Below, piece by piece: positions 7,797 to 56,641 of a stretch of 64,000 bases of DNA. The notes below the pieces were generated by a model that saw only the letters and a program-made list of their open reading frames with translations, was not told the origin of the DNA and made no database searches. Source of the DNA: Antedon mediterranea (taxonomy: Eukaryota > Animalia > Echinodermata). The translations under genes were made by a program, and so were the position numbers. Position 1 is the first letter of the stretch. Each line of letters opens with the position of its first letter. The stretch covers positions 28,520,001-28,584,000 of the forward strand of contig NC_092674.1 in assembly GCF_964355755.1 (NCBI RefSeq), written 5' to 3'.

Positions 7797-7937
7797 AAGC
7801 TCTGTCTACACTATCAAAAATGTATGCGACAAAAAAAATAATGTCATATCACTATACCATATTTGGGCATATCACTAGCATTTGGGCACATCACACTTTT
7901 TTGTCAAACTAGTTTGAATGATAGTGTAGACAGAACG
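7797..7937. mobile_element. short MITE (AGCTCTGTCTACAC family)
   Basis: AAAGCTCTGTCTACACTATCA ... TGATAGTGTAGACAGAAC. Confidence 0.65.
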
Positions 7938-8935: not shown

Positions 8936-9703
8936 ATTAAGGACTTCTGTTCCTTTCTTTTAGAAGAATTTAGAAAGGGAAATCCTAAACCAAATAGTTA
9001 CGAGTTATACAGTTTGTTACTGTTGTTGGTGTGTAATTATCTCTCTTTTTTTTCATTGAATATTCATGATTTCCCAGCCTCTTCACTTTAAACTTATTGC
9101 CAACAGAAATGTGCATATATTATTTCATAATACCTCTTTAAAAACATAATTTCTGTAAAATAAATATTAATGTTGATGTACAAATAACATTAACTACAAA
9201 TGAATAAGATAAATATTTTCGAAATATCTCTATTAAAATAATATGTTAAACAAAAACTGCAAAATTGGATATATTAATTTCAATTGCCCTTTTAAAAGCA
9301 CACAATATTATTATACAGCACATCCTATATAAAGTATATGTTTATTATTCAAATATAGTATATTATTATTTAGTGAAAATATATAAATGTTAATTTATTT
9401 ATCAATAGACTAGTATAATGCAAATGGGATGGTTCAAACTTAAAATTACAGACTGTTATTTAAGCAGCACACTATCAAATGCGATGTAAGTCACAATTGG
9501 AAGACATAAGCAATCATAATTATGTCATACTTATGTGACGTCACAGACTTGGCAAGATCCGTGGTAATGCGATAGAGGGCAGTAGCACAGTTTAACAAAA
9601 TATTAAAATGATAACAGAATTAATAATTCTGTATGTCAGCCAGCACTAGACTAGACATAAGTTTAGTTTTACATGTGAAATATAGATAGAGCAAGGCAAT
9701 CTT

Positions 9704-9863
9704 AAGCTCTGTCTACACCATCAAACTTGAAACTTTATGTGAAAAAAGTTATGTGTCCATATATAGCCATGATGATGTCATATCACTACCATATTTGTGC
9801 ATATCACCACCACATTTAGTCACATCACATTTGTCAAACTAGTTGGATAGTGTACACAGAGCT
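9704..9863. mobile_element. short MITE (AGCTCTGTCTACAC family)
   Basis: AAGCTCTGTCTACACC ... ATAGTGTACACAGAGCT with 21-bp internal units. Confidence 0.65.
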
Positions 9864-10529
9864 GAAACAACTATCTTGGATAGAGTCTCAAGTCTGTCAA
9901 AAAATTCATAATAAAATTATCTAATATCTGTATCGGCCACAATACGCTCATCTTTACAAATTCATACAGATAATATTGTTTATACAATCTTTGATGAATA
10001 CAAATCTGTATCATAAAATAAATTCTTTCTCATACTGATATTTTATGTAAAAACAAGGATTCATCAATTCAATTTATTACTTTCTAGCGATAGAAATGTT
10101 TTATTATCTACAGTATTTATTTATTGAACAAAAGTACAAATTTCTAGATAGAGTACAGGAAATTGAGTGTAAAATGAGATGCTAACTAAATATTTTATGT
10201 AAAACACAGTTGTATATGTGTCATACTCCATGATATGTGTACGCACTGCTATATAAAGTCAAAATTATTTTACTTTAGTTACTGCAGTAACTATATTTAT
10301 AAGCAGGATAATCATACACATTGTTTACACTCATAAATTTCATGTCGAAACAAAATAAAAACATACTGTATTGCAGTAAAAATTGTTGTTTCTGCAGTAA
10401 CTGCAGTAAAATAATTTTCTCATGATCTTTTTAATACGAAAATTATTTTTGTCTTATTTATAATATAATATATTTTCACAGCTGCGTGTTTATATATAAA
10501 TATATAATATTGTATATAGCTTTATTACT

Positions 10530-35400: not shown

Positions 35401-38400
35401 CGTCATCATATGGCCAGTTAAATAAAAAAGGTCGTATTTTCATCTTTTGCGTCATAATTCATTACATTTAAAAGAGCGCGCATCAATATTTCACGTATTC
35501 AAATTTCTTCTACACGCTAATACGTTGTTGCTGAGATAATTTCCTTTCGGAATTGCTACCTTCGCGTTTCATTTTAAAACCGTCAACATGTTAAAAATTG
35601 CAATAAATAGCGGGTCCCGTAAGTTCACATATTCTACACTGTATGTGATATGGATACAGATTATACTGTGTATACTATATATGAATTTATATATAGATAA
35701 AATTCAGCAATAACAACATATCATATTCTTCAGTTCAGGTCATAATGCCAACGTGAACACTTCCTTTTGTCCTCAACCTATCCCCTTAATGTTAATGTTG
35801 CACCACTTGCGCGGCGGATAACCAAACTCGTCAAAGTGACGAGTTACATGTCTAGTATCGTTTTGATTTAGTTCTTTGCTTTTATTTGTATCTCCATTGA
35901 GATCCAGCCACTGCTACACACATTTATATAATAGAAAATATAAGGAAAATACAACTTTTTTCTGTTTCTCTAATTAAAGTAATTTCTATATAAGGAAAAT
36001 ATAACTTCAGTAATTTTATTTCTTTTAAATTTTGTAAAATAATATTTTTAAAATGGTGGTAAACAAGGTTTTTTAAAGGCAAAGGCCTAGCAGTCAGTAG
36101 TCGACAAAATTAAAACACAATAATAGCCTGGATTCATAATATAAAGTGCCTAATGTTGTAAAACCTCTATTAGGCACTATACATATTATTATCCGGGACC
36201 GCTTCTTCCTTGGCTGTTTTGAAATTAATATTCCTAAAAATTGAATTATCTATACTGTACACTTTGTCATAAAAGATACCGTTTACATAAAAATAACCAA
36301 TAAACTAGATGTGCATAATTATCATTATTCTAAACTGCTGTCTAATATCACAATACCCTAAATGTATGTATGGGTGTGTCTCGTATTACTCATACAAAGC
36401 CAAGTATGTTTGAATATAAATATTCATATTCCTAATTTCTATAATAATTGCTATCATAGTATGGAATGAAATTTGCTCAACAACTGATGTTGCAATCATA
36501 TAAATATATTATCATATTAATATATTATTACATGCTGGAAGTATACAGTTTATTATATAACAGCATTAAGCGTGGTTCCCACTAGCGACTCAATGTAACG
36601 CAACGCAGCGACGTATCGACACAAAGTGCTGTATTGCGTAATCACAAGTGAGAACCGACGACGCAACAATGCTGCAAATATCGCAGGTTTGATTTCACGC
36701 AGACGGGGCAAACACAGTTATTGGAAGGCCATTTTCTGACGTTGCGTAGATTTGTGTTCTGTTGCGTCGATAGTGAGGAACCAAGCTTTGCAATGAGATA
36801 TACGCCAGATACTCTAAATTGTCTATTAATTAGCAGATTTAATGGTTTATGTACTGTATGTACTATACATTGATGGAGTGTTTGAAACAAAATCATTTAA
36901 CTCTGACACGATTTGAACCAAGCAGTGCCACAACCAAGTAAACCGTAAAAATGTAATTGAGACAGTATTTGTAGAAATGTTTAAATGTTGTTATACTGCT
37001 CCTTTAAATTTTATGATTAAAAAAAATAGATAGCATATCGTAACTGCGATAAAAGAAAATTACTGATCATTTTTTTTAATGAAAATAAAAATTTAACAAT
37101 TTGTAAAGATTGTGTGTGACAAGGTCAGCAGACTACTTTGCCTCGACAAAACTTGATTTAACATAAATACTCCTATGGGACAAGGGATGCATTAGCATTA
37201 ACAATTACTGACAGAATAGTCATACCTTTAGTGTAGATTTGTAAAGCCTACAAAAGCCTTTATTTGTTTAATCATATGTACTGAAATTTATCTAAACCAA
37301 ACATTTCTAAATTAGTAAATCAGTTTAGATTTATTAATTAAAAAACTCTTCCTTCGTTATTATGTAGTCATGACATAAGTCATTTAATTCCTAAGGGACC
37401 ATATCAAAATTATTATACTGCAGTAATTAAATTTTTACTGCAATAATGTATGATGTTGGATTGTTTATGGTGTGTGTGTTTAGGATTACCCACAAAATAC
37501 TTGCTAAATATTAAAAATAATATTTATTAAAACCTAATCCAATGATGCTATGATTAATAAAAACACTAAAATCGTTTTAAAATCGTATTGTCATGATATA
37601 TTGTTGCTCTCAATCTCTCAACCAATAGGATGAAAACTTGTTAGATTTCTTTTGTTTAATATGTACAGTATGAAAAATGCATATTATCTATTTATCTTCG
37701 GTCGTTTCATCCTAGTGTAAATGCAGTAACCACAGTAGAATAATTTGATATGGTCCCTAACAGTATGTTTATTACCTTTAACAACAACATTGTGGGGATT
37801 GATTGGAAATTCCTCTTTTATTACCATTCAACCTATGTGTTCATCCTAAGCCGGGATTCATTTGGAATGAGTTGCTAGTGTGAACAGTCATTAACAAAGT
37901 TTTACCCATACTAAAATACTTGGTCTGTGTGAACAAAGCTTTTTTTTTTTGTATCTCCATTGAGATCCAGCCACTGATACCCACAGCATTGTCAATTTTG
38001 TATCTCCATTAAGATCCAGCCACTGATACCCACAGCATTGTCATTTTGTATCTCCATTGAGATCCAGCCACTGATACCCACAGCATTGTCAATTTTTCAG
38101 TAATTTGCCTTTGGATTTATTAATTATACAGTGTTATTAATTATCTAATGTAAATATTGCAATCTTTTAAAAATTAATTAAAAACTTGTAAAAAATATAT
38201 ATAAATATTAATTTCATACTCATCCAACAGCGAGTACAAACTCCCCCATTACAGAATGAGGTAAACTAAATTAATAGTTTATCGTGCTTATATAAAAACT
38301 AAGTCTCATTTTAAAATACAGTATAACAGTTTAGCCAAAACAGGCTATACAACTAACACTAGCACTAGCGTACATTAACCCATTGTAGACCAGTTTCATG

Positions 38401-41400
38401 CTAAGTTTAAGTATCAATAAAATGTATGAATAAATTAATCGAACAAACTTAATGAGAATCTTGGAAGAATTACAATCAAAAGACAAATTGAATTTCAAGT
38501 CACGATACATCGTTGGTGTTTAAGAGCAAGGCAACGTGTCTTATCAATCAATTATCGGCAGCCAATCAGGATAAATTGTTAGTTTCTCAATTGCCAATAG
38601 TAACGAGATAATTTAATAGGAGGTTGTTCAGGTTTATTGATTCTGAACTAACTGTACTTTTTGTAACATAAAACCAATGAAAAAAGGAAAATTCCGAGAT
38701 GCTGACTAATATTTTTATCAATATCCAATCTTTTTTTTAGTTGACTGAAAAGGGACTGAAGAGAATTAGGGCTTAAATTCACTTACAGTATAAAAACACA
38801 ATCTTAGTACCTGAAAAAGAACTACAGTAGTGGAACATAAAACCATTGAAATGAAAAAAGAAAAATTCCGAGATGCTGACTAATATTTTTATCAATATCC
38901 AATCATACATTTTTTTAGTTGACAGAGGAAAAAGGGACTGAAGAGAAATAGGGCTTAAATTCACTTGTGAAAACACAACCTGAACAGTACCTGAAAAAGA
39001 ACTACAGCAGGTCGCATTTTAGTTCTTTCAGTAAAGGTTTTCAACTTTGACCTATCCAACAACAAGTAATTTGACCAATCATGATGCAATGTATCATCCA
39101 GAACTGTGATTGATCAACTCAGTGTTTATGCCTACGTTATTGTGTTGTATCTAAGTATGAACCAAGCTTTAACTGGCTGACTTAGGCTACATTTCACACT
39201 GTTGAATTCCTACTATTCACCTACTGTATTATCATCTACCGTATTATAAATACTACCAGAGCATACAAATCTCTGGTCTAAAGACACTACCACCACATTT
39301 ATATTATGTGCATTTAAAAATATATAAAAATTTGTGTATTATAATTAGGGCAGTAACATAAAAAAAAACTTACCGAAGATGTAAAAATATCTCCAATCTT
39401 TTGAATTTCATTCCACTCTTTCACACGTGGTTGAAGCTGTCGTAGAAACAGCCGATGGTTATGCAATATTTCTGGAACTTTGTAAAACATGATGTCAACG
39501 ATGCTTGGATCACATATTCCGCTGTTTTCAGGACTTTTCAGCGGTTCATAATAATTCTAAGAAAACAAATGTTTTACTTTTAAAAGATAATAATGAAGTA
39601 TAAGTTTTTTTGGAAAAACCTCACTGTACATAAATGCTACTGTACCTACAAAAATTGTACTGTATGCTCTGGCGTATCATTATTGATAATACTACTTGTA
39701 ACCTTATCAAGATAATGGATTCTTTTGTACAGAGGCACGCAATATCATCATCCGGACATTTTTATTCTTGATCGTTTTACAAGAGTCTTTTGTAATTAAT
39801 ACTACTTGTAACCTTATCAAGATAATGGATTCTTTTGTACAGAGGCACGCAATATCATCATCCGGACATTTTTATTCTTGATCGTTTTACAAGAGTCTTT
39901 TGTAAAACGACTACTTATACAACAACAAAATAACTGTAGATAACAAACGATTCATTTTTTTAAAGAAATTAATTTCTTAACCTTGGTTTAGTAAAGATGT
40001 ATAAACAAGTATTTCATCAAGTACAGAGGCATAGAATATCATCATACGGACATTTCTTTATTGCTGATCGACATTTCATAAAACAAACGATTCCTTTTTA
40101 AGAAATTATTTTTTTCAACCCTGGTTTAGTAAAGATGTATAAACAAGTATTTCATCAAGTACAGAGGCATAGAATATCATCATACGGACATTTCTTTATT
40201 GCTGATCGACATTTCATAAAACAAACGATTCCTTTTTAAGAAATTAATTGTTTCAACCCTGGTTTAGTAAAGATGTATAAACAAGTATTTCATCAAGTAC
40301 AGAGGCATAGAATATCATCATACGGACATTTCTTTAATTGCTGATCGACATTTCATAAAACAAACGATTCCTTTTTAAGAAATAAATTTTTTCAACCCTG
40401 GTTTAGTAAGATGTATAAACAAGTATTTCATCAAGTACAGAGGCATAGAATATCATCATACGGACATTTCTTTAATTGCTGATCGACATTTCATAAAACA
40501 AACGATTCCTTTTTAAGAAATTAATTTTTTCAACCCTGGTTTAGTAAGATGTATAAACAAGTATTTCATCAAGTACCAGATGGAAATTCATTACCGTTCA
40601 AACATATTAATTGAGTATTACTCATACCACAATGGGTGTGGTTAGTTATCATTGCTTTAACAAAGACTCTATTGTATAATTTAATGTCGATTTCTCCTAT
40701 TAATTTCTTTCTTCATACAGTATTCAAATATAGTCGGATATAAAACAAAATAAAGGAGAGAAACAGTGTACAGTATCCGATCATTTTGTAATTAAAAAAA
40801 TTGAAAAATTGATTGACTTTTTATAATTAAAAAATATATTGTCCTGAAAAAAAAATTTTTTTACACATTTTTTTGTTAAATATGCAATTTTTATGTCACA
40901 AAATAGTTATTCACTTTGACCAAAAATTGGATTGGCAACAAAATTATTTACCTGAAAAAACTGTAATTTAAAGGCAAAAAACAGTCAAATTGTCTGACAA
41001 TGGGATTTTGATTAAATTTAAGTTTTATTTTTTTTTTCATTTTTTTTAAATGGAGTTGAATAACTACAAAATGGCCTATTGAAAGTCCGATTTTATAAAT
41101 CTTTATTTTTCATGATTTTGCGGGTCAATACATCTTTAAATTTAGTACATACATTATGTTATTAATCTATATTTCATTTCAATAATTTGTCTGCTTTTTT
41201 GTTCAATTCTAAGAAATTTATTTTCTACAAAACAGCATTACAACGAAGAGTTAACCCTAACATAAAGTCCTATAATAAATAACGCCTTATGCGGATTTCA
41301 GTTGCTTTTTACAGATTATAACTGTAATTTTCATTGAGTTCTCAATGATCTCCCAAGACAAATTACATACTGCTTTTCAACTAAACAGTTTCTTCGTATT

Positions 41401-44400
41401 TCTATTCATCTTTTAAGGTCATTTAGCGCTGAAATAATTGTGTTCACCTTATAACAAAGTGTACTAAAAGTCACCTTCAGTTTTCTTGAAACATTGTTCA
41501 CAATATAATGACACTGCTGCCCAAAGTCATTTATGATTTACAGTACTAAGGTTTTAATTTTGGCAGGTTTTTTTTTATACTGCTCTGCTCAAAGTCGTTT
41601 ATAATTTTACCATGTTCTTTTTAACCGAAATGATTTGTAAATGTCAACAAACCAGAATCATTTTACCACAATCTTAATAGTGGGGATGGGGGGGGGGGTG
41701 ATGTCGTGTAGGATGGTGAGGGGGAAAGAGGCAAATCCAGGACTTTGAAGTAGGATTGGGAGTTGGGACCAGGTCCTTAAATGGCAAAGCAAACTATTTT
41801 GCATTATAATTTTCAAAATATCCCACCCTTTTGTATCTGCATATGGGGAGGAGGAAGTAAAATGATTTATTATGGGAGAAATTGTGTCTAAATTATGTCT
41901 TCTTGCTTACCAAGTTCGATAAAGCTTAATGACACTAAAAATATATGGTTTCATAACAATTTTGGAATTTCTTTAGATTTAATTATTCAACAAAATTAAG
42001 ATAAGAATGCAATGGGAATAATTGAGTTATTACAAAACAATTGAGTTTATTACAGAACATCTCTGATAGTACTATAATGATTACATGACGATATTATGTA
42101 TACAATATTGCTATACAATTTGCAACAGTCCCTCATTGTAGTTCATACTGTGTTATACTGTAGTATATGAGCCATGATTCACAAAAATTAAATTACCCAT
42201 TAAAACGAGTGTTTTGATTTCTTTATTTACCTGTGATGGAATGGAATAACCTTGACCTATTTTGAAAAGTCACAATAAGATCACATGCTGGTTTACTTTG
42301 AGGAGGTCATAAGAGCCTGAAAATCCTAGGCCTAAACTTAAGCATGGTTTATGCGCAATTCCATGTCATTGTTTAAATCCAAGTTAAGCCCGACCACGAG
42401 GGACGGTAATTCCAAAAACGAGCTGTTTGTGAACAGTGAATTATATACGTCATCAGAGAGGTTTTAATGTAGGCCTATACTGCAGTAAACCATGAGACCC
42501 TCTTAAAATGACAAAACATTTGAGCTCTTTACACCAACCCCTAAAAATAGTAATATCGATACCTACCAATTATACATGGTAGGCTAGTACAAAAATATTT
42601 GTGTTTATTGGTTATCCGCAACGAAGTTGCAGGATAACCTCTTGTGATTGTACGAAATCATCATCATTGGTTATCCGCAACGAAGTTGCAGGATAACCTC
42701 TTGTGATTGTACGAAATCATCATCATCATCATCATCAACTTTTTATTAGTTATCCGCACTATGGCGGATAACTCCTTGTAACTGTCCTGTTTCATCATCT
42801 TTTTTTTTTTCTGTATTATTCTTCTTTCTTTCTGTCATTTTTGTGCAGAGCGTATCTCTAAAACGTGTAAAGTTAACATTTTATAACTTTGTCAACATAT
42901 GGGCAATCACGTGAAGTTGTGCTTTCCTATAATTGAATGACGTCAGAGTTGCGCAACATGACTTACGCGCGTTTTTATGAATTTCGCGTATTTAACATAG
43001 ATCAAAAACCATATAATAATTTAAATTGAAACTTAGCAAAAGTCTAATTTATATCGTGCGCTAACTTTTTGTGCACTAAAAATGGCATGTTTTACACAAA
43101 GTTACGCGCGCACGCGCGTTTAAAATTTTCCAATGCGAAAAATCAATTTCTAATCAACTTTATACGCGTTTCATGTCATTTTGAGCATGTCAAAAATTCC
43201 CACACGTGCGCAAATTTTTACGCGCGTGGTGCACACGTAGCGTTAAAAACGTCATTTTTTCGAGTGATTTATGTTTTTCCAGCCTTTTCTAGTAATTTTA
43301 CCAACTTTTGAATAATTTCGACTTCAAATTACGTCATACGAGCACGTAGAAAATGATAATTTGCGAGCTTTTTTGATGAAAAACTTCAAAAATTCGTCAA
43401 AATTAAGCCTTTTTTTAAACAATCGTAATTTCTAAACTAAACGGTAAAAATTATTTTTATTACATATTCTGGAAGTTGATGAGTTGTAGATATCAGATCA
43501 TGCATTAATATGGCTAACCGGACATTGTGACGTCATCGTATGGCCACGCGAATATGAAATTTAGGATTTTTGTATCTTTTGTCATAACTCCTCACATTTA
43601 ATAGAGGGCATCTCCACTTATCCGTTTTCCATTTTCACCCCGATTTTGATATTGTCTAGGTCAATGAACTATCTTTAGCATGAGTTGAAAATATTTTAAT
43701 TTTTATGACGTCATCATGCCTAAAAATTTAAATTACGTGTGGCATTAATTTCATCTTTACAGTAAATTTCAATCTGTTATAGCTAGTAAGAATAAAATGT
43801 GATAATCACGATTAAAACGTTTTCTTGAAGCTATTGGATTGTAGATACAAAATCATGTGAACATTTTGCCAATCGGATGTGGTGACGTCATCATATGGCC
43901 AGTTAAATAAAAAAAGTCGTATTTTCATCTTTTGCGTCATAGTTCATTACATTTAAAAGAGCGCGCATTAATATTTCACGTATTCAAATTTCTTCTACAC
44001 GTTAATATGTTGTTGCTGAGATAATTTCCTTCCAAAATTGCTACCTTCGCGTTTCATTTTAAAACCATCAACATGTTAAAAATTGCAATAAATAGCGGGT
44101 CCCGTAATTTCCCCTATTCTACACTGTATGTGATATGTATACAGATTACACTGTGTATACTATATATGAATCAAAATAATAGAATTCAGCAGCAATAACA
44201 ACATATCATAGTCTTCAGTTCAGGTCATAATGCCATAATCTTTTTCCGTGTGCAATATTCCAACGTATGGCGTGGACGTGGCGTTTGTCGTGCGGATAAC
44301 TAACTCGTCAAAGTGACGAGTTTCATGTCTAGTTCTTCTTCTTTCTTTCTGTATGATTTTTGTGTAACGCTTTTCTCTAAAACTCGCAAACATAACATTT

Positions 44401-47400
44401 TGTTAACTATGTTAACATTTTGACATTTATGTAACGTCGTCAAGCGAAGCTTTTCATGATGTTTACAATTGCGCAACGTGACGTACGCGCGATTTAACGA
44501 TTTTATCGTATTTAACATATGTCGAAAACCAAATAACATTTTAAAGTGAAACTTTTCAAAAGTTTAATTTATATCATGCGCTAAATTTCTGTTGAAAAAA
44601 AATTGCGTGTTTTACACAAAGTTACGCGCGCACGCACATTTAAAATTTCAAAATGCGCAAAATTAATTTATAATCAACTTTCTACGCGTTTCATGTCGTT
44701 TTAAGCATGTCAAAAATTCCCACGCGTGCGCACATTTCTACGTGTGCGGTGCGCACGTAGCATTGAAAACGTATTTTTTTCGCGTGATTTATGTTTTTCC
44801 AGCCTTTTCTAGTAATTTTACCAAATTTTAAACAATTTCGACTTAAAGATACGTCATACGAGCACGTCGAATTGGACAATTTGCGCGCGTTTTTTATAAA
44901 AAGGTTAAAAAATTCGTTTCAAATATGCCTTTTTTTAAACAGTCGTAATTTCTAAACTAGACGGTCAAATTTTTGTGGATGACATATTCTGGAAGTAGAT
45001 GAGTTGTAGATATCGGATCAAGTATTAATATGGCTAACCGGACATTGTGACGTCATCGTATGGCCACGCGAATATAAAATTTAGTATTTTTATATCTTTC
45101 GTCATAGCTCATCACATTGAATAGAGCGCATCTCCACTTATCCGTTTTCCATTTTCACCCCGATTTTGATATTGTCTAGGTCAATCAACTATCTTTCGCA
45201 TGAGTTAAAAATATTTTAATTTTTTTGACGTCATCATGCCTAAAAATTTAAATCACGTGTGGCATCAATTTCATCTTTACAGTAAATTTTAATCTGTTAT
45301 AGCTCGTAAGAATAAAATGTGATAATCACGATTAAAACTTTTTCTGGAAGCTATTAGATTGTAGATATGAAATTATGTAAAAATGTTGCCAATCGGATGT
45401 TGTGACGTCATCATATGGCCAGTTAAATAAAAAAAGTCGTATTTTCATCTTTTTCGTCATAATTCATTACATTTAAAAGAGCGCGCATCAATATTTAACG
45501 TATTCAAATTTCTTCTACACGCTAATACGTTGTTGCTGAGATAATTTGCTTTCGGAATTGCTAACTTCGCTTTTCATTTTAAAACCATCAACATGTTAAA
45601 AATTGCAATAAATAGTGGGTCCCGTAATTTCACCTATTCTACACTGTATGTGATATGGATACAGATTATACTGTGTATACTATATATGAATTTAAATAAT
45701 AAAATTCAGCAATAACAACAGATCATATTCTTCAGTTCAGGTCATAATGCCAACGTGAACACTTCCTTTTGTCCTCAACCTATCCCCTTAATGTTAATGT
45801 TGCACCACTTGCGCGGCGGATAACCAAACTCGTCAAAGTGACGAGTTACATGTCTAGTCATTGGTTATCCGCAACGAAGTTGCAGGATAACCTCTTGTGA
45901 TTGTACGAAATCATCATCATCTTTTTAGTTATCCGCATTCAGCGGATAACTCCTTGTAACTGTCCTGTTACTTTTTTAGTTATCCGCAATGAGCGGATAA
46001 CTCCTTGTAACTGTCCTGTTACTTTTTAGTTATCCGCTTAGTAGCGGATAACTCCTTGTAACTGTATGAAATCATCTTTTTTTTTTTTTTTTTCTGTATT
46101 ATTCTTTCTTTCTGTCAATTTTGTGTCTCGCGTATCTCAAAAACTTGTAAACAAAACATTTTATAACTTTGTCAACATGTGGGCATCCACGTGAAATTGT
46201 GCACCTCCTATTGTGAATGACGTCAAAATTGCGCAACGTGATTTACGCGCGTTTTAACGAATTTCGCGTATTTAACATAGATCGAAAACCATAGAGCAAT
46301 TTAAATTGAAACTTAACAAAAGTTTAATTTATATCTTGCGCTAACTGACTGTGGAAAAAAAATGGCATGTTTCACACGAAGTTACGCGCGCACGGGCGTT
46401 TAAAATTTCAAAATGCGAAAAATCAATTTCTAATCAACTTTCTACGCGTTTCATGTCATTTTGAGCATGTCAAAAATTCCCACGCGCGCGTATATTTTTG
46501 CTCGCACGGTGCGCACGTAGCGTTGAAAATAAATTTTTTCCTCGTGATTCATGTTTTTCCAGCCTTTTCTAGTAATTTTACCAACTTTTGAACAATTTTG
46601 ACCTAAAATTACGTCATACGGGCACATCCAATTGGATAATTTCCGTGCGTTTTTGATGAAAAAGTTCAAAAATTTGTCAAAATTCGTCAAAATTTTGCCT
46701 TTTTTTAAACATTCATAGATTCTAAACTACGAGGTGAACTTTTTTTAAATTATATATTCTGGAAGTTGATGAGTTGTAGATATGGAATCATGCATTAATA
46801 AAGCTAATCGGACATTATAACGTCATCGTATGGCCACGCGAATATAAAATATAGGATTTTTATATCTTTCGTCATAGCGCATCACATTTAATAGAGCGCA
46901 TCTCCAATTATCTGTTTTCCATTTTTACCCCGATTTTTATATTATCTAGGTCAATCAACTATCTTTCGTATGAGTTAAAAATAATTTAATTTTTATGACG
47001 TCATCATGTCTAAAAATGTAAATAACGTGGGGCACTTATTTTCGTCTTTACAGTAAATTTCAATCTGTTATAGCTCGTCAGAATAAAACGTGATAATCAT
47101 GATTAAAACGTTTTCTGGAAGCTATTGGATTGTAGATACGAATTTATGTAAACATTTTCCCAATCGGATGTTGTGACGTCATCATATGACCAGTTAAATA
47201 AAAAAAGTCGTATTTTCATCTTTTGCGTCATAATTCATCACATTTAAAAGAACGCGCATCAATATTTTACGTATTTAAATTTCTTCTACACATTAATATG
47301 TTGTTGCCGAGATAATTTCCTTCCGAAATTGCTATCTTAGTGTTTCATTTTGATACCGTCGCTATGTTAAAAATTGGAATAAATGGCGGGTCCTGTCATT

Positions 47401-50400
47401 TCACCTATTCTACACTGTATGTAATATGTATACAGATTATATTGTATATATAATATGACACAAAATAACAGAATTCAGCAATAACAACATATCATATTCT
47501 TCAGTTCAGGTCATATTGCCATAATCTTTTTCTGTGTGCAATATTCTAACGTATGACGTCTACGTGGCCTTTGTCGTGCGGATAACTAACTCGTCAAAGT
47601 GACGAGTTACATGTCTAGTTTTTTTTCTTTCCTTCTCCCCCATTTTTGTGTCTCACGTATCTCAAAAACTTGTAAACATAACATGTTATAACTTTGTCAG
47701 CATGAGGGCATTCACGTGAAGTTGTGCACCTCCTATTTTTGAATTATGTCAGAGTTGCGCAACATGACTTACGCACGATTTTATGAATTTCACATATTTA
47801 ACATAGGTCAAAAACCAAATAACATTTTAAATTGAAACTTTGCAAAAGTTTAATTTATATCATGCGCTAACTTTTTGTTGAAAAAAAAATGCGTGTTTTA
47901 CAAAAAGTTACGCGCGTACGCGCATTTAAATTTTCAAAATGCGCAAAATTAATTTCTAATCAACTTTCTACGCGTTTCATGTCATTTTGAGAATGTCAAA
48001 AATTCCCAGGCGCGCGCAAATTTTTACGCGCGTGGAACACACGTACCGTTAAAAACAGATTTTTTCGCGTGATTTATGTTTTTTCAGCCTTTTCTAGTAA
48101 TTTTACCAACTTTTAAACAATTTCGACTTCAAATTACGTCATACGGGCACGTCGAATTGGATAATTTATGTGCGTTTTTGATGAAAAAGTTCAAAAATTT
48201 GTCAAAATTTGTCAAAATTATACATTTTTTTAAACAGTCGTAGTTTCTAAACTAAACGGTAAAAGTTATTTTTATTACGTATTTTGGAAGATGATGAGTT
48301 GGAGATCATGTATCATGCATCAATACGGCTTACCGGACATTGTGACGTCATCGTATGGCCATGCGAATATAAAAAATAGAATTTTTGTATCTTTCATCAT
48401 AGCTCATCACATTTAATAGAGCGCATCTCCAATTATCTGTTTTCCATTTTCACCCCGATTTTTATATTATCTAGGTCAATCAACTATCTTTCGCATGAGT
48501 TAAAATATTTTAATTTTTATGACGTCATCATGTCTAAAAATGAAAATAACGTGGGTCACTTATTTTCATCTTTACAGTAAATTTCAATCTGTTATAGCTC
48601 GTCAGAATAAAACGTGATAATCATGATTAAAACGTTTTCTGGAAGCTATTGGATTGTAGATACGAATTCATGTAAACATTTTGCCAATCGGATGTTGTAA
48701 CGTCATCATATGGCCAGTTGAATAAAAAAAGTCGTATTTTCATATTTTGCGTAATAGTTCATCACATTTAAAAGGGCGCGCATCTATATTTTACGTATTC
48801 AAATTTCTTCCACACGTTAATATGTTGTTGCTGAGATAATTTCCTTCCGAAATTGCTATCTTAGTGTTTCATTTTGATACCAAAGCCGTGTTAAAAATAA
48901 GTATAAACGGGGGGACCCGTAATTTCACCTATTCTACACTGTATGTAACATGTATACAGATTATACCGTTTGCACTGTATATACTATATGACACAAAATT
49001 GACAGAATTCAGCACTAACAGCATATGATATTCTTCAGTTCAGGTCATAATGTCATAATCTTTTTCCGTGTGCAAAATTCCAACGTATGACGTGCGCGTG
49101 GCGTTTGTCGTGCGGATAACTAACTCGTCAAAGTGACGAGTTTCATGTCTAGTTTTTAGTTATCCGCATTGAGCGGATAACTCCTTGTAACCGTCCTGGA
49201 TCATTTTTTTCTTTATATTATTCTTCTTTCTTTCTCCTTCATTTTTGTGTCTCGCGTATCTCAAAAACTTGTAAACGTAATATTTCATAAATTTGTCATC
49301 ATATGGACATTTACGTGAAGTTGTGCACCTCCTATTTTTGAATGACGTCAGAGTTGCGCAACGTGACTTACGCGCGATTTTATAAATTACAATGATTTAT
49401 CATACGATAAAAACTAAAAGTGATTATTAATTGAAACTTGGTGTAAGGTTAATTCTTATCAAGGGTCAACTTTTTGTGTACTAAAAATGGCATGTTTTAC
49501 AAGAAGTTACGCGCGCACGCGCATTTCTCCTCCATATTTGTGTCTCGCGTATCTCAAAAACTTGTAAACAAAACATTTCATAACTTTGGCAACATATGGG
49601 CATTCACGTGAAGTTGTGCACCTCCTATTGTGAATGACGTCAGAAATGCGCAACGTGACTTACGCGCGATTCTATGAATTTCGCGTATTTAACATAGATT
49701 GAAAACCATATAACAATTTAAATTGAAACTTAGCAAAAGTTTAATTTATATCTTGCGCTAACTTTTTGTGCACTAAAAATGACATGTTTTACACGAAGTT
49801 ACGCGCGTTTAAAATTTTGAAATGCGAAAAATCAATTTCTAATCAACTTTGTACGCGTTTCTTGTCATTTTGAGCATATCAAAAATTCCCACGTGCGCGC
49901 AAATTTTTATACGCGCTGTTCGCACGTATCGTTAAAAACATACTTTTTTGCATGATTTATGTTTTTCTAGCCTTTTCTAGTAATTTTTTAAATTTAAAAA
50001 AGTTCAAAAATTCGTCAAAATTATGCCTTTTTTTAAACAGTCGTAGTTTCTGAACTAAACGGTTAAAATTATTTTTTTTACATATTCTGTAAGTAGATAA
50101 GTTGATATTAAGATATTTTAATTAATTTATGTTAATTTCCACTTAATTTGACCTCAAATGACCCCTTCGGAGGGTCATTTTTTCTGTGACTAATGACATA
50201 GAGTAGAATCCAAAAACGTTGAAAAACCTTTTTACGCAATTATTTCTAGGTTAAACGTTATTTTCCATCCACTAATTTTACATTTTCAAATTTCTTCTAC
50301 ACGCTAATATGTTCTTGCTGATATCATTTCATTCCGAATTTGCTATCTTAGTGTTTCATTTTGAAACCGTCGCCATGTTAAAAATTGGAATAAATAGCGG

Positions 50401-53400
50401 GTCCCGTAATTTAACCTATTCTACACTGTATGTGATATGTATACAGATTATACTGTGTATACTATATGACACAAAATAACAGAATTCAGCAATAAAAACA
50501 TATCATATTCTTCAGTTCAGGTCATAACGCCATAATCTTTTTTCTGTGTGCGTGCACGTGGCGTTTGTCGTGCGGATAACTAACTCGTCAAAGTGACGAG
50601 TTTCATGTCTAGTTTTCTTCTTTCTTTCTCCTCTATTTTTGTGTCTCGCGTATCTCAAAAACGTGTAAACATAACATGTTATAACTTTGTCAGCATGAGG
50701 GCATTCAGGTGAAGTTGTGCACCTCCTATTTTTGAATAACGTCAGAGTTGCGCAACATGACTTACGCGCGTTTTTACGAATTTCGCATTTTTAACATAGA
50801 TTGAAAACCATATAGCAATTTAAATTGAAACTTAACGAAAGTTTAATTGATATCTTGCGCTAACAGAATGTGAAAAAAAAATGGCATGTTTCACAGGAAG
50901 TTACGCGCGCACGCGCGTTTAAAATTTCAAAATGCGAAAAATCAATTTCTAATCAACTTTCTACGCGTTTCATGTCATTTTGAGCATGTAAAAAATTCCC
51001 ACGTACGCGCATTTTTTTACGCGTGCGGTGCGCACGTAGCGTAGAAAACCATTTTTTTCGCGTGATTTATGTTCTTCCAGCCTTTTCTAGTAATTTTACC
51101 AACTTTTGAACAATTTAGACTTAAAATTACGTCATACGGGCACGTCGAATTGGATAATTTACGTGCATTTTTGATGAAAAAGTTCAAAAAGTCGTCAAAA
51201 TTTGTCAAAATTATGCCCTTTTTTAAACAGTTATAGTTCCTAAACTAAACGGTGAAAGTTATTTTTATTGCATATTCTGAAAGGTGATGAGTTGTAGATT
51301 TTGAATCATGCATTAATATGGCTAACCGGACATTGTGACGTCACCGTATGCCCACGCGAATATAAAATATAGGATTTTTGTATCTTTCATCATAGCGCAT
51401 GACATTTAATAGAGCGCATCTCCAATTATCTGTTTTCCATTTTTACCCCGATTTTTATATTATCTAGGTCAATCAACTATCTTTCGTATGAGTTAAAAAT
51501 ATTTTAATATTTATGACGTCATCATGTCTAAAAATGTAAATAACGTGGGTCACTTATTTTCGTCCTTACAGTAAATTTCAATCTGTTATAGCTCGTCAGA
51601 ATAAAACGTGATAATCATGATTAAAACGTTTTCTGGAAGCTATTGGATTGTAGATACGAATTTATGTAAACATTTTCCCAATCGGATCTTGTGACGTCAT
51701 CATATGGCCAGTTGAATAAAAAAAGTCGTATTTTCATATTTTGCGTAATAGTTCATTATATTTAAAAGGGTGCGCATCTATATTTTACGTATTCAAATTT
51801 CTTCTACACGTTAATATGTTGTTCCTGAGATAATTTCCTTCTGAAATTGCTATCCAAGTGTTTCATTTTGATACCGTCGCCATGTTAAAAATTGGAATAA
51901 ATGGCGGGTCCCGTAATTTCACCTATTCTACACTGTATGTAATATGTATACAGATTATACTGTTTGCATGTACATACTATATGACACAAAATTGACAGAA
52001 TTCAGCACTAACAGCATATCATATTCTTCAGTTCTTGTCATAATGCCATAATCTTTATCTGTGTGCAATATTCCAACGTATGACGTGCACGTGGCGTTTG
52101 TCGTGGTGCGGATAACTAACTCGTCAATGTGACGAGTTTCATGTCTAGTTTGTCATCTTCTTTCTTTCTGTATGATTTTTGTGTAACGCTTTTCTCTAAA
52201 ACTTGCAAACATAACATTTTGTTAACTATGTTAACATTTTGACATTCACGTAACGTCGTCAAGCGAAGCTTTTCATGATGTTTACAATTGCGCAACGCGA
52301 CGTACGCGCGATTTAACGATTTTCTCGTATTTAACATATGTCGAAAACCAAATAATATTTTAAAGTGAAACTTTGCAAAAGTTTAATTTATATCATGCGC
52401 TAACTGTCTGTTGAAAAAAAATTGCGTGTTTTACACAAAGTTACGCGCGCACGCGCATTTAAAATTTCAAAATGCGCAAAATTAATTTCTAATCAACTTT
52501 CTACGCGTTTCATGTCGTTTTAAGCATGTAAAAAATTCCCACGCGTGCGCACATTTTTACGTGTGCGGTGCGCACGTAGCATTGAAAACGTATTTTTTCG
52601 CGTGATTTATGTTTTTCCAGCTTTTTCTAGTAATTTTACCAAATTTTAAACAATTTCGACCTAAAGATACGTCATACGAGCACGTCCAATTGGACAATTT
52701 GCGCGCGTTTTTTATGAAAAGGTTAAAAAATTCGTTTAAAATATGCCTTTTTTTAAACAGTCGTAATTTCTAAACTAGACGGTCAAATTTTTGTGGATGA
52801 CATATTCTGAAAGTAGATGAGTTTTAGATATCGGATCAGGTATTAATATGGCTAACCGGACATTGTGACGTCATCGTATGGCCACGCGAACATAAAATTT
52901 AGGATTTTTGTATCTTTCGTCATAGCTCATCACATTGAATAGAGCGCATCTCCACTTATCCGTTTTCCATTTTAACCCCGATTTTGATATTGTCTAGGTC
53001 AATCAAGTGTCTTTCGCATGAGTTAAAAATATTTTAATTTTTTTAACGTCATCATGCCTAAAAATTTAAATGACGTGTGGCATTAATTTCATCTTTACAG
53101 TAAATTTTAATCTGTTATAGCTCGTAAGAAAAAAATGTGATAATCACGATTAAAACTTTTTCTGGAAGCTATTGGATTGTAGATACGAAATTATGTAAAA
53201 ATGTTGCCAATCGGATGTTGTGACGTCATCATATGGCCAGTTAAATGAAAAAGATCGTATTTTCATCTTTTGCGTCATAATTCATTACATTTAAAAGAGC
53301 GCGCATCAATATTTCACGTATACAAATTTCTTCTACACGTTAATACGTTGTTGCTGAGATAATTTCCTTTCGGAATTGCTACCTTCGCGTTTCATTTTAA

Positions 53401-56400
53401 AACCGTCAACATGTTAAAAATTGCAATAAATAGCGGGTCCCGTAATTTCACCTATTCTACACTGTATGTGATATGGATACAGATTATACTGTGTATACTA
53501 TGTATGAATTTAAATAATAAAATTCAGCAATAACAACATATCATATTCTTCAGTTCAGGTCATAATGCCAACGTGAACACTTCCTTTTGTCCTCAACCTA
53601 TCCCCTTAATGTTAATGTTGCACCACTTGCGCGGCGGATAACCAAACTCGTCAAAGTGACGAGTTACATGTCTAGTCTTTTTCTTAATCTTCTTTCTTTC
53701 TGTATGATTTTTGTGTAACGCTTTTCTCTAAAACTTGCAACTATAACATTTTGTTAACTATGTTAACATTTTGACATTTATGTAACGTCGTCAAGCGAAG
53801 CTTTTCATGATGTTTACAATCGCGCAACGTGACGTACGCGCGATTTAACGATTTTCTCGTATTTAACATATGTCGAAAACCAAATAACATTTTAAAGTGA
53901 AACTTTGCAAAAGTTTAATTTATATCATGCGCTAACCTTCTGTTGAAAAAAAATTGCGTGTTTTACACAAAGTTACGCGCGCACGCGCATTTAAAATTTC
54001 AAAATGCGCAAAATTAATTTCTAATCAACTTTCTACGCGTTTCATGTCGGTTTAAGCATGTCAAAAATTCCCACGCATGCGCACATTTTTACGTGTGCGG
54101 AGCGCACGTAGCATTGAAAACGTATTTTTTTCGCGTGATTTATGTTTTTCCAGCCTTTTCTAGTAATTTTACCAAATTTTAAACAATTTTGACTTAAAGA
54201 TACGTCATACGAGCACGTCGAATTGGACAATTTGCGCGCGTTTTTTATGAAAACGTTAAAAAATTCGTTTAAAATATGCCTTTTTTAAAACAGTCGTAAT
54301 TTCTAAACTAAACGGTCAACTTTTTGTGGATGGCATTTTCTGGAAGTAGATGAGTTGTAGATATTGGATCAGGTATTAATATGGCTAACCGGACATTGTG
54401 ATGTCATCGTATGGCCACGCAAATATAAAATTTAGGATTTTGTATCTTTCGTCATAGCTCATCACATTGAATAGAGCGCATCTCCACTTATCCGTTTTCC
54501 ATTTTCACCCCGATTTTGATATTGTCTAGGTCAATCAACTATCTTTCGCATGAGTTAAAAATATTTTAATTTTTTTTACGTCATCGTGCTTAAAAATTTA
54601 AATCACGTGTGGCATTAATTTCATCTTTACAGTAAATTTTAATCTGTTATAGCTCGTAAGAATAAAATGTGATAATCACGATTAAAACTTTTTCTGGAAG
54701 CTATTGGACTGTAGATACGAAATTATGTAAAAATGTTGCCAATCGGATGTTGTGACGTCATCATATGGCCAGTTAAATAAAAAAGGTCGTATTTTCATCT
54801 TTTGCGTCATAATTCATTACATTTAAACGAGCGCGCATCAATATTTCACGTATTCAAATTTCTTCTACATGCTAATACGTTGTTGCTGAGATAATTTCCT
54901 TTCGGAATTGCTACCTTCGCGTTTCATTTTAAAACCGTCAACATGTTAAAAATTGCAATAAATAGCGGGTCCCGTAATTTCACCTATTCTACACTGTATG
55001 TGATATGGATACAGATTATACTGTGTATACTACAGTATATATGAATTTAAACAATAAATTTCAGCAATAACAACATATCATATTCTTCAGTTCAGGTCAT
55101 AATGCCAACGTGAACACTTCCTTTTGTCCTCAACCTATCCCCTTAATGTTAATGTTGCACCACTTGCGCGGCGGATAACCAAACTCGTCAAAGTGACGAG
55201 TTACATGTCTAGTCTTTATTTTTCTGTCCATGATAAAGTTTTATATACTTTTGATTTGTAGATTTCTTTGTACTATTTTTACTGTTTCAAATAAATATGA
55301 ATATAAAATATCTACCATTCCTATATAACTTTTTCTTTAGCATCTTTCTACCTCTGCATACATTTTTAAAATGCATCAATTAAAAATTAAAAAAAATAAA
55401 AAAATCATGCAAAATTTAAAATTAAAAAATCATTTGTTGGAAGAGGTAAAAAACCAAATAAATAGGTATATATAATTTTTTTAAATATGTTTTCTTGGAA
55501 TGGTCTATAATTACAAAGATCTGTTTATACCACTTTTTTTGACAAAATGAGCTAATCATAAAACCCTTCAACAAAATCTATATTATAAAGTCATTGTACT
55601 TTAAACAATCCATTACAATACATCATTGTCAGATCAAATCCTGCTCCTCCTTCCTATCAAATTAATTCCAAATAGAGTCTGATTGATAAAATAGAATCTA
55701 TCTAATCTACTGAATTTAACCATTTTTTTCAATATCAGAATTTATACGAGAATTTACAAGCATGGATTCCATGCGGATTGGTGGTGAAAATCATGTCAAA
55801 CTTATTCTACTGCAGTTACTGCAGTAAAAAAAACTACATTTTGTATGTACCTTTAAACCTTGTTTTTTGCCATTTGCCATACAGTACCATACAAGGTTTT
55901 TTTCTACAGTACTGTATTTAACCATTTTTTCAATATCAGAATTTATAGGAGAATTTACAAGAATGGATTCCTGGGGGAAATAGTGAGAATCATGTAAAAA
56001 TTATTTTACTGCAGTTACTGCAGTAAAAAAAACATTTTTCTTTAACCTTGTTTCCATACCAAGTTTTTTTTGTACTGTTATTGCAGTAGTGCCTGATAAA
56101 CTTTAATAAATCATACGTTATTATATAGTTGTAAAAAAAGTTTTTACTGCAGTAACTGCAGTAGAATAATTTTTACCCTATAGTACACTTAAAAGCAGAA
56201 AAATGGAAAATAACAAATATTTCTATAGAGATATCATGTCAAAATTATTCATTTTTGCTTCTTTTATTTTATGGTATAAAGTACTGTACGTTATATAGTT
56301 TTAAATAAGTTTTTACTGCAGTTACTGCAGTAGAATAGTTTTTACCCTTACCCTACCCTTAAAAGTAGAAAAGAGAAAAAAGCAAAAATAACAAACAAGT

Positions 56401-56641
56401 ATAGAAAGATGACATGATCAGATTCCGCATGTAATGTATAGCTGTAAAGGTCATCGACTATTAAAGTAATCAAAATGCACTGTACATACAGCCTTACAGG
56501 CATGGCCAACTTGAAGCAAAACAATAGTTTGGGCCAAAATGACAACGATTTGTTAAAACTCACCTTAACAAGAGTTTCAAGACTCTGTACATAGGATTGT
56601 TCAGTGTGAAGCATACTATTAGCAACCTGCAGTCGTATATC
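10530..56641 (-). CDS. ARHGEF17: Rho guanine nucleotide exchange factor 17-like (ARHGEF17/TEM4); last 16 coding exons (~935 aa), 5' exons outside the window
   Basis: Spliced frame has DH-domain motifs (TEQSYVQSLETL; LIIKPVQRIPRYELIIK; DFLDNTPEDHPDH), a PH-like region (DRCLFLFSDLLVC) and ARHGEF17-type propeller motifs (MQFTCAAP, VWVCNSDGYVGQVCLLS, MWLGTEDGCIHVYQ, SDAIIRQHKAACLRIT, ISGGDGYEDF, DSTNHLLLWQV). All 15 introns are GT-AG with matching phases. Confidence 0.92.
11622..11796 (-). CDS. ARHGEF17: ARHGEF17 exon
   Basis: HQFTVSDDSQRAV...VRLYHAITYQSLCEVDVTQTVHKMLA; CAG/GTAAT, phase 0/1. Confidence 0.9.
11981..12129 (-). CDS. ARHGEF17: ARHGEF17 exon
   Basis: KSWDTCNPISLTIGSSNTPINCMVAVSSKIWCGCHNSVLIVDPHTLAVE; CAG/GTGAG, phase 1/0. 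Confidence 0.9.
12296..12800. mobile_element. ~505-bp MITE with ~50-bp TIRs (copy 1)
   Basis: GGGAGGTTTTGCAATCTTACGAATACGATAACGAAAACGGATACGTCA ... TGACGTATCCGTTTTCGTTATCGTATTCGTAAGGTTGCGAAACCTCCC; flanked by TA; near-identical inverted copy at 17569-18071. Confidence 0.82.
13115..13272 (-). CDS. ARHGEF17: ARHGEF17 exon
   Basis: IHVYQCGDNISTKRK...VFISLANGDLTVYKREQ; CAG/GTATG, phase 2/1. Confidence 0.9.
13783..13895. repeat. TAATAAACGCCCC(GCCCC) reiterated motif, probable MITE remnant
   Basis: About 6 direct units; inverted relatives near 26575-26630 and 26845-26945. Confidence 0.65.
14041..14232. repeat. minisatellite, 38-bp unit x5 (dimer of 19-mers)
   Basis: CAGTGTGTGTAAATTACCT-CAGTATGTGTAATTTATTC repeated. 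Confidence 0.9.
15330..15426 (-). CDS. ARHGEF17: ARHGEF17 exon
   Basis: DDVERLRSGNRQFKDCLEAAQPTMWLGTEDG; TAG/GTAAG, phase 1/2. Confidence 0.88.
15895..16175 (-). CDS. ARHGEF17: ARHGEF17 exon (low-complexity/acidic insertion)
   Basis: SSMKRRPRPRP...AFDSDDSELDEDIMSP...DEASS; TAG/GTATT, phase 2/1. Confidence 0.85.
16420..16536. repeat. 21-bp minisatellite
   Basis: AATTTTTGGTTGCCCGACGTC-like units, about 5-6 copies. Confidence 0.85.
16591..16867 (-). CDS. ARHGEF17: ARHGEF17 exon (start of beta-propeller region)
   Basis: PPVFLYPIPISKTRSGMQFTCAAP...VWVCNSDGYVGQVCLLS; CAG/GTAAA, phase 1/2. Confidence 0.92.
17444..17535 (-). CDS. ARHGEF17: ARHGEF17 exon
   Basis: EGTETMTLVFNNVDLKMNFESKFTEAKLKL; TAG/GTGAG, phase 2/1. 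Confidence 0.85.
17569..18071. mobile_element. ~505-bp MITE (copy 2, opposite orientation)
   Basis: Same TIRs; internal sequence is the reverse complement of 12296-12800; TSD can be read as TA, or as AAT if the termini extend by 1 bp. Confidence 0.82.
18964..19290. repeat. ~150-bp imperfect tandem duplication
   Basis: ATGCATAGTAGCTCTTAATCTTCAATACATC...GACTTAACATG occurs twice; the second copy carries small insertions. Confidence 0.85.
20179..20300 (-). CDS. ARHGEF17: ARHGEF17 exon
   Basis: ALNDVIKELMDGIHRKISDRQTLRVVPPALMNKVELLATT; AAG/GTAAG, phase 0/2. Confidence 0.82.
21043..21244 (-). CDS. ARHGEF17: ARHGEF17 exon
   Basis: LSQASLPIDASKYKLNWKYQLEDMEIVK...LACSHQ; TAG/GTTTG, phase 2/0. Confidence 0.88.
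21753..21856 (-). CDS. ARHGEF17: ARHGEF17 exon (PH-like region)
   Basis: KVAKKDRCLFLFSDLLVCASVKRRSGPGRRQSFS; CAG/GTAAG, phase 0/2. Confidence 0.9.
21966..22113. mobile_element. short MITE (AGCTCTGTCTACAC family), reverse orientation
   Basis: AAGCCCTGTTTACACTATCAAAC ... GTTTGATAGTGTAGACAGAGCTTT. Confidence 0.68.
22242..22469 (-). CDS. ARHGEF17: ARHGEF17 exon (end of DH domain)
   Basis: DFLDNTPEDHPDHENLEVAL...NRRFIRQYPFSEL; CAG/GTAAG, phase 0/0. Confidence 0.92.
22491..22682. mobile_element. short MITE with internal 21-bp minisatellite (AGCTCTGTCTACACTATCAAACT family)
   Basis: Inverted termini AAAGCTCTGTCTACAC / GTGTAGA(C/T)AGAG; internal (GGCATATCACTACCATATTTR)n; other copies at about 7797, 9704, 11031, 12930, 21966, 24555 and 26066. 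Confidence 0.72.
26066..26218. mobile_element. short MITE (AGCTCTGTCTACAC family)
   Basis: CTGTCTACACTATCAAACT ... AGTTTGATAGTGTAGACAG with three 21-bp units. Confidence 0.68.
29800..29892 (-). CDS. ARHGEF17: ARHGEF17 exon (DH domain)
   Basis: DRMRENKEKLSVDDLIIKPVQRIPRYELIIK; TAG/GTAAG, phase 0/0. Confidence 0.92.
30335..30448 (-). CDS. ARHGEF17: ARHGEF17 exon (DH domain)
   Basis: FTKQSLLDTYTSFINNFSRAKELISKASAKPAFNKFLD; CAG/GTAAG, phase 0/0. Confidence 0.9.
32174..33775 (+). mobile_element. solo HINE-like element (hybrid A/B ends)
   Basis: 5' TTAGTTATCCGCA subTIR with partial inverted repeat, TCA microsatellite, ~1.5-kb body, 3' TGCGGATAACTAA plus stem-loop plus CTAG; inserted at A^T. Confidence 0.88.
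34240..35855 (+). mobile_element. solo HINE-like element, subfamily A
   Basis: 5' TTGGTTATCCGC, (TCA)n, body near-identical to 44333-45857, 52149-53675 and 53676-55212; 3' GCGGATAACCAA plus hairpin plus CTAG; T^T target. Confidence 0.88.
36568..36789. mobile_element. short MITE (AAGCTTGGTTCC family)
   Basis: AAGCGTGGTTCCCACTAGCGAC ... GTCGATAGTGAGGAACCAAGCTT inverted termini; homologous to 6747-6937. Confidence 0.62.
37395..37757. mobile_element. Harbinger-type MITE (ACTGCAGT family)
   Basis: TIR GGGACCATATCAAA(A)TTATT / AATAATTTGATATGGTCCC with TAA TSD on both sides; decayed relatives near 10260-10420, 28400-28445, 55790-56340, 58610-58650 and 62485-62617. Confidence 0.72.
37948..38096. 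repeat. ~48-bp tandem repeat x3
   Basis: TTTGTATCTCCATTGAGATCCAGCCACTGATACCCACAGCATTGTCA; a single related unit at ~35885-35920. Confidence 0.88.
38665..39008. repeat. ~175-bp imperfect tandem duplication
   Basis: AACATAAAACCA...GAGATGCTGACTAATATTTTTATCAATATCCAATC...GTACCTGAAAAAGAACTACAG occurs twice. Confidence 0.85.
39374..39556 (-). CDS. ARHGEF17: ARHGEF17 exon (DH domain)
   Basis: NYYEPLKSPENSGICDPSIVDIMFYKVPEILHNHRLFLRQLQPRVKEWNEIQKIGDIFTSS; AG/GTAAG, phase 0/0; absent from the ORF track. Confidence 0.9.
39687..39905. repeat. 110-bp tandem duplication
   Basis: Units starting at 39691 and 39801 are identical. Confidence 0.9.
39943..40577. repeat. 138-bp tandem array, ~4.5 copies
   Basis: GTACAGAGGC recurs at 40021, 40159, 40297 and 40435, and partially at 40573. 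Confidence 0.9.
42667..45857 (+). mobile_element. nested HINE, subfamily A (interrupted by the copy at 42746-44332)
   Basis: Removing 42746-44332 restores ctttttattcttcttc, as seen in the intact copy at 34240. Confidence 0.85.
42746..44332 (+). mobile_element. nested intact HINE, subfamily B
   Basis: TTAGTTATCCGC-ACTATG-GCGGATAAC ... TGCGGATAACTAA, hairpin, CTAG. Confidence 0.85.
45976..49152 (+). mobile_element. nested HINE, subfamily B (hosts the copy at 46026)
   Basis: B left end (loop AATGA); body resumes at 47619; B right end at 49152. Confidence 0.8.
46026..47618 (+). mobile_element. innermost intact HINE, subfamily B (nesting depth 5)
   Basis: B left end (loop TTAGTA), contiguous body and B right end. 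Confidence 0.85.
49156..50612 (+). mobile_element. nested HINE, subfamily B, internally rearranged
   Basis: B ends intact; the start of the body is duplicated (restart near 49526) and the central part is replaced by non-matching sequence at ~50105-50285. Confidence 0.8.
56564..56641 (-). CDS. ARHGEF17: ARHGEF17 exon (start of DH domain)
   Basis: DIRLQVANSMLHTEQSYVQSLETLVK; TAG acceptor, GTGAG donor, phase 0/0. Confidence 0.9.

Follow-up and report, generated by a model that had tools for sequence, protein, structure and literature searches.

We analysed a 64,000-nucleotide stretch of the genome of the echinoderm Antedon mediterranea (contig NC_092674.1, positions 28,520,001 to 28,584,000; referred to below as the window), and observed that its segment 42608–55212, lying inside an intron of a RhoGEF gene, is a nest of eight copies of one transposable element, stacked five levels deep. 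This nest is real, and its members are separate members of a family and not duplicates of the hosts in which they reside. The structure of their ends supports the view that they are non-autonomous Helentron/HLE2 (HINE-type) elements. We hold, with somewhat better than even confidence, that the nest of these non-coding Helitron2/HLE2 (HINE) copies was built by seven separate insertions into the 5' pyrimidine tract of a resident copy, boosted by the nearness of the resident terminus.

The ends of the elements were located by motif scans on both strands of the window. These gave ten left and ten right ends, which belong to a single family and all lie on the + strand; the nest accounts for eight of each, and two solo copies for the others. 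The left ends of the nest are at 42608, 42667, 42746, 45861, 45925, 45976, 46026 and 49156, and the right ends are at 44332, 45857, 47618, 49152, 50612, 52148, 53675 and 55212. Last-in-first-out pairing of these ends yielded the tree N1(N2(N3)N4(N5(N6(N7)N8))), with a depth of five, in which the inner copies reside at offsets of 59, 79, 62, 64, 51, 50 and 54 within their hosts. All seven inner copies lie 50–79 bp inside the 5' end of the host and on its strand, and none lies in a body. The initial annotation had described the same 16 ends, tree, depth and offsets, all of which we recovered, and its statement that the insertions share one orientation and leave every ~1.45-kb body uninterrupted is true for 7/7 of them.

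The outermost copy, N1 (A-type; 42608–55212; own segments 42608–42666, 45858–45860 and 53676–55212, 1599 bp), holds N2 (A-type, offset 59; 42667–45857; own segments 42667–42745 and 44333–45857, 1604 bp) and N4 (A-type, offset 62; 45861–53675; own segments 45861–45924 and 52149–53675, 1591 bp). N2 holds the uninterrupted N3 (B-type, offset 79; 42746–44332, 1587 bp), and N4 holds N5 (B-type, offset 64; 45925–52148; own segments 45925–45975, 49153–49155 and 50613–52148, 1590 bp). Inside N5 sit N6 (B-type, offset 51; 45976–49152; own segments 45976–46025 and 47619–49152, 1584 bp) and N8 (B-type, offset 54; 49156–50612), and the fifth level is reached in N6 by the uninterrupted N7 (B-type, offset 50; 46026–47618, 1593 bp). 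When the inner copies were excised in silico, we obtained seven elements of 1584–1604 bp and N8 with 1457 bp, which align with the solos over their whole length; the inside-out excision and alignment to the solo at 34240–35855, proposed earlier as a check, thus gave complete hosts. N8 is rearranged, with a 292-bp internal duplication (within 49231–49807), deletions and an unrelated insert of ~170 bp (50105–50274) that replaces part of the body and matches nothing else in the window. Both solos are also on the + strand. The one used for the alignment, S34 (34240–35855, 1616 bp), is an uninterrupted A-type copy outside the nest. The other, S32 (32174–33775, 1602 bp), was absent from the initial annotation; it has B-type termini, an A-like hairpin loop and a mosaic body, and is inserted at an ATT microsatellite.

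The pairing of heads with bodies agrees with the sequence of the terminal repeats. Two types of 12-bp repeat (TTGG/CCAA and TTAG/CTAA) are present in the nest, and in 8/8 parsed copies the 5' one is exactly reverse-complementary to the copy's own 3' one; random pairing would give this concordance with a probability of 1/56. As three of the copies are unsplit, the informative part of this check consists of the five orphan heads and five headless bodies, for which the subfamilies agree in 5/5 cases (1 in 10 by chance). Upon rejoining N2 across N3, the 40 bases spanning the junction were identical to those of the uninterrupted solo S34, which indicates a clean insertion without duplication at this position. 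The six other inner junctions fall within runs of TCA or T that could conceal a duplication of 1–3 bases. Hence, the earlier claim that target-site duplications are lacking holds strictly at 1/7 inner junctions, the others being indecisive. Likewise, insertion at A^T or T^T is correct for the sites as drawn (5/10 each), but the boundaries are ambiguous by one base. Two right-to-left joins in the nest carry spacers of 3 bases.

Next, we compared the copies with one another. The A-type copies (N1, N2, N4 and S34) are 96.5–97.3% identical, and their differences fall in a star pattern (22, 22, 22 and 14 changes private to one copy, 4 shared); N2 and N4 are therefore not duplicates of their host, and an origin of inner copies by duplication of their own host was rejected. 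The B-type pairs, N8 excepted, are 87–91% identical. In a nine-copy alignment used for sliding identity and private changes, from which N8 was left out because it is rearranged, the B-type copies are mosaic, with 150-column blocks at 95–98% identity shared with different partners. This patchwork (42746–52148) suggests recombination between co-active sublineages. No pair of copies matches exactly over more than 160 bp, and the units differ by 3–17% or more. A simple tandem array was rejected, as the units are distinct and the left ends are stacked. Dating by CpG decay was uninformative, with 0–6 private events per copy.

The ends of the copies define the class to which they belong. In N1, taken as an example, the 5' end (42608–42638) has a 12-bp subterminal inverted repeat starting at base 1, which is predicted to fold with a partial inverted repeat into a hairpin, and the 3' end (55171–55212) has the 12-bp partner 29–30 bp before the end, a 9–10-bp stem-loop and a terminal CTAG. 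For Helitron2/HLE2 elements, an 8–15 bp 5' repeat within 0–2 bp of the 5' end, a 3' partner ~20–30 bp from the 3' end and upstream of a hairpin, and insertion into T-rich targets, generally T^T or T^T/C, without target-site duplication have been described (PMC3627910). We observed the 5' repeat from base 1 in 8/8 nest copies and in both solos, its exact reverse complement 29–30 bp from the 3' end in 8/8, and at least five T in the next eight bases at 10/10 insertion sites. Hairpins at both ends are predicted in 10/10 copies (DNA parameters, without a shuffle control), with the first 50 bases folding at −9.9 to −12.7 kcal/mol. The likeness to Helitron2/HLE2 (available parts of PMC3627910 and PMC11417382) covers the asymmetric 12-bp terminal inverted repeats, the 5' one being terminal and in a hairpin, the 3' repeat 29–30 bp from the end before the stem-loop, the 5' T and the T-rich target. 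The nest elements differ in ending with CTAG, as in HLE1 and proto-Helentron, and in that half of the sites are A^T as drawn.

The HINE/DINE-1 elements of mites, flies and oyster (PMC4067079, PMC2374699, PMC7492417), for which T-rich targets without target-site duplication have been reported, offer another comparison. As in the available accounts of those elements, the present copies are non-coding (the longest stop-free stretch is 66–97 aa across the ten copies), with subterminal inverted repeats, a partial inverted repeat, a microsatellite after the 5' repeat and a 3' stem-loop. Here, however, the microsatellite consists of TCA plus a T/pyrimidine run (one or both, starting at offsets 34–78 in 10/10 copies) and not of GTCY, and there is no regular central tandem array; the central repeats amount to a 143-bp internal duplicate at ~71% and the N8 duplication. 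The Helentron-associated/DINE-1-type identity proposed at the outset is in keeping with the shared features. The class membership, as read from the sequence, rests on structure rather than on a partner transposase sequence. Canonical Helitron1/HLE1 was rejected, since the copies start with TT (not TC) and have inverted repeats, sharing only the 3' hairpin and the CTAG end. An RNA gene was also rejected, as an Rfam search of the nest returned no match. The 30-base terminal motif had no match among metagenome contigs. Separately, S34 is CpG-rich, with an observed/expected ratio of 1.81 compared with 0.71 for window DNA outside the elements.

Beyond this locus, read contigs were aligned to one solo, outside the repeat tract itself; 15 of 108 joints were covered, and most of these came from the T-rich flanks. 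The number of contigs aligning was 6,763 in run X6 and 23,381 in run X8, so the element family is large and varied. In run X8, we observed a right-end-to-left-end joint with a short TCA/T spacer, which has a depth of 530 compared with ~280 for unique flanks and is absent from the window. As its spacer differs from the two 3-base spacers of the nest, this joint points to a double insertion, at a different locus or allele, of two siblings into one tract. A 1594-bp contig of run X2, whose label names another organism, has a body ~98% identical to that of the solo; in this contig the body runs to the right end, then directly to the left end and then to the start of the body; the overlap fits a cyclic 31-mer contig, and the 5' tract is ~49 bases shorter. 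It would be either a circle or a head-to-tail array, and may come from trace host DNA. In run X3 (labelled organism B), 469 contigs aligned to the element and none to the first flank bins, which would fit either a relative that also carries the family or traces of host DNA.

We then asked how far the target sequence accounts for the clustering of the insertions. The landing zone is the sole long pyrimidine tract in each copy and the strongest pyrimidine run there; the element, as had been suggested, does carry its own landing pad. Each of the ten copies has a single 30-bp tract of such strength, and five more are found across 48 kb of DNA outside them. If insertion were uniform, the confinement of all seven insertions to 30 bp of a 1.6-kb host would have P = 3e-10, and when short-range T-rich targets inside the host were allowed for, P was 1.8e-5 to 2.4e-9. 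We also performed a window-level test on every eligible site of both strands, in the ten copies as well as in the 48 kb outside them. For three target rules satisfied by 10/10 sites, the probability of at least 7/9 later insertions falling in the zones was 7.7e-14, 1.5e-9 and 2.3e-8, and a model trained on the three sites outside other copies gave products of 1e-7 to 1e-11. A zone term added on top of graded pyrimidine content was 19–24-fold (p 5.7e-4 to 3.1e-3, n = 10), and 144-fold when T count alone was modelled. All ten copies have + orientation and run antisense to the host gene; this holds also for the three that are not inside another copy, and these too face the T-rich strand. The shared orientation can be explained by the strand bias of the tract, and the hairpin is not needed for it.

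Several observations weigh against an added effect of the resident terminus and, in part, against insertion in place. Requiring 16 or more pyrimidines among the 20 bases that follow, as seen at 8/10 sites, gives P = 9.8e-5, and the stricter rule of at least 18/20, obeyed by 6/10 sites and by 0/3 of the outside ones, removes the excess (P = 0.16). Graded sequence-only models that include the pyrimidine count and are fitted to all ten sites predict 2.8 zone hits (pyrimidine count alone) to 4.0 (four features), where seven are seen. The data come from one chosen locus with ten insertions, a size at which chi-square p-values are rough. The distances of the insertions from the hairpin arm, 24, 25, 28, 28, 31, 33 and 48 bp, are not fixed; the last one was measured in the host whose TCA run is longest, a run that may have lengthened later. 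Finally, the B copies carry 25–40 private changes in the nine-copy alignment, compared with 11–13 in the A copies that hold them, an apparent excess that the mosaic blocks at 95–98% soften without removing. It is possible, if rather doubtful in our judgement, that sequence preference alone is responsible, long T/pyrimidine runs being favoured, the element carrying one of the best, and the hairpin being irrelevant. The modelled hit numbers and the unremarkable result under the strictest rule would suit this explanation, as would the N3 site, which lies at a T run past the longer TCA stretch, and a poly-T target chosen by the endonuclease has been hypothesised (PMC4067079, available part). Against it, the zone term stays significant in 4/4 feature sets, the three outside sites have only 14–16/20 pyrimidines, the N2 site is in a TCA repeat with three T among ten flanking bases, and five comparable tracts of the window have no insertion. 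The spread of distances is better explained by a site that the tract defines than by a strict ruler. We concluded that the tract makes up a large part of the clustering and that something further is likely, though on the strength of ten insertions at a locus picked as striking. The recruitment of the RepHel complex by the resident 5' hairpin, proposed in the initial annotation, is in our view no more than conjectural. "Homing-like", the term used in the initial annotation, is an overstatement, as 3/10 copies of the window sit in ordinary T-rich DNA.

The other explanations concern the assembly of the nest. A part of it, such as the 6.2-kb B block N5–N8, might have been put together earlier elsewhere and moved in by read-through of inner right ends. 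The apparently greater divergence of the B copies relative to their A hosts would agree with such a composite, and transposition of nested copies as composites has been proposed for Fusarium (PMC5148889) and maize (PMC3288121), to judge from the available text. We regard this as improbable, as composites that halt as soon as a right end is reached would retain more left ends than right ends, whereas the nest balances 8:8 with matching types, mobilisation of N5 would have to bypass three intact right ends of the same type, and the composite route still requires self-insertion somewhere for each junction. In place of insertion, one could imagine rolling-circle concatemers or a recombination event between a circular and a resident copy, as the cyclic unit in run X2, where right end meets left end directly, means that circles or head-to-tail arrays exist somewhere. 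These routes predict identical units in the order left–body–right–left–body–right with direct joins, whereas the nest shows stacked left ends, headless bodies, spacers at both of its right-to-left joins and distinct units. As the order of the ends is wrong, an origin of this kind is largely excluded, and we find it very improbable. Scarcely credible is an artefact of assembly from a 1.5-kb tandem array. The nest is indeed read from the assembled sequence, but the divergence of the units and the shortness of their exact matches, together with the independence of the copies, make an artefact or a simple tandem array unlikely; type-matched nesting in 8/8 copies is not expected from a mis-join, and the window contains no N.

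Serial insertion in place is favoured over chimeras with surplus heads because the ends balance 8:8, and the following sequence of steps may be envisaged for it. From the biology of HLE2, a RepHel transposase encoded elsewhere would peel off a copy in trans, and this copy would likely pass through a joined-end circle, as reported for FoHeli1 (PMC5148889, available part). It would then be pasted into a T-rich strand with no target duplication, in an orientation set by the tract's strand bias. Judging from the residual excess, a neighbouring resident 5' terminus likely raises the rate ~20-fold over composition, perhaps through transposase bound to the resident subterminal repeat. Each new copy would supply a fresh tract while the two termini of the host stay intact, so that nests can deepen. 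A more specific version, which we put forward only tentatively, is that transposase sitting on the resident 5' subterminal repeat captures incoming circles into the adjacent tract, with at least a tenth of insertions going into relatives. If this were true, the tract would be a selected safe haven, in which the termini of the host remain intact and new genic sites are spared, and heterogeneous 1.5-kb pseudo-satellites would arise by insertion and not by unequal crossover.

Self-insertion near the 5' end has already been proposed for fungal Helitron2 (PMC5148889, PMC13342296; available parts). In FoHeli1 of Fusarium oxysporum, the first 31, 65, 73 or 85 bases are repeated, which was explained by this process (PMC5148889), and up to five 5' termini per copy are known in Fusarium (PMC13342296). 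FoHeli1 is thus also a Helitron2 with stacked short 5' ends; however, as far as the available text goes, its stacks mostly have one 3' end and move as chimeras, and self-insertion was inferred there. In the present nest every copy is complete, each head being matched by a body and a right end of its own; members of two subfamilies are interleaved, and the landing sequence is legible. The balanced nest is direct anatomical support for the model inferred in Fusarium from stacked 5' ends, and with the landing sequence named, the choice between tract and hairpin becomes testable; target choice by Helitron2/Helentron is biochemically untested according to the available part of PMC4067079. Maize Helitrons insert preferentially next to or within other Helitrons, so that multiple termini arise (PMC3288121), and to that extent resemble the nest, but they are canonical HLE1 elements, for which no fixed near-5' position is described in the available part of that paper. 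Insertion into the own microsatellite is not described in the available parts of the HINE/DINE-1 accounts (PMC4067079, PMC2374699, PMC7492417), nor a balanced nest at the 5' tract in those of PMC11417382, PMC13085455, PMC3630058 (Calliphora) and PMC12001565 (Xenopus), the last two of which also describe no self-insertion into the 5' end. Our literature search found no such nest in an animal HINE; it left subscription journals mostly uncovered, and the Fusarium supplements may hold closer cases.

In a branching model with an assumed 10,000–100,000 root copies, a nest of eight is expected only at ~0.1–0.2 inner insertions per copy, and at this rate self-insertion would be a major route for the element family. 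Such nests pass for tandem arrays and confuse repeat annotation, and they record the order of subfamily activity.

The nest accounts for 12,605 bp, or 74%, of a phase-0 GT-AG intron of 17,007 bp (39557–56563, − strand), in agreement with the figure of 12.6 of 17 kb given earlier; the flanking exons match Pfam RhoGEF positions 1–21 and 23–80. A Pfam scan of seven pieces gave three RhoGEF, one PH_19 and one WD40_2 match, an architecture that we take to be that of the ARHGEF10/17 group. The gene, called ARHGEF17 in the initial annotation, is presumably a member of this group, either ARHGEF17 or ARHGEF10, and a PDB search with it, which matched BCR, FGD6 and ECT2-like only, was of no help in naming. 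The same intron contains tandem arrays at 39687–39905 (110 bp × 2) and 39942–40576 (138 bp × 4.6), with 96–100% matches. Elsewhere in the window, an open frame of 304 codons (5459–6373, + strand) with a Pfam Sulfotransfer_2 match (E 2e-51) converges on the RhoGEF gene. A 515-bp element resembling a miniature inverted-repeat transposable element, with ~55-bp terminal inverted repeats, is present at 12291–12805 and 17563–18077, in opposite orientation and with 91% identity. Dispersed repeats of 110–170 bp built on a 21-bp unit occur in both orientations at 7793–7934, 9698–9866, 11026–11166 and 12912–13048, with further copies of the same family at 21963–22116, 22527–22679, 24572–24683 and 26060–26219.

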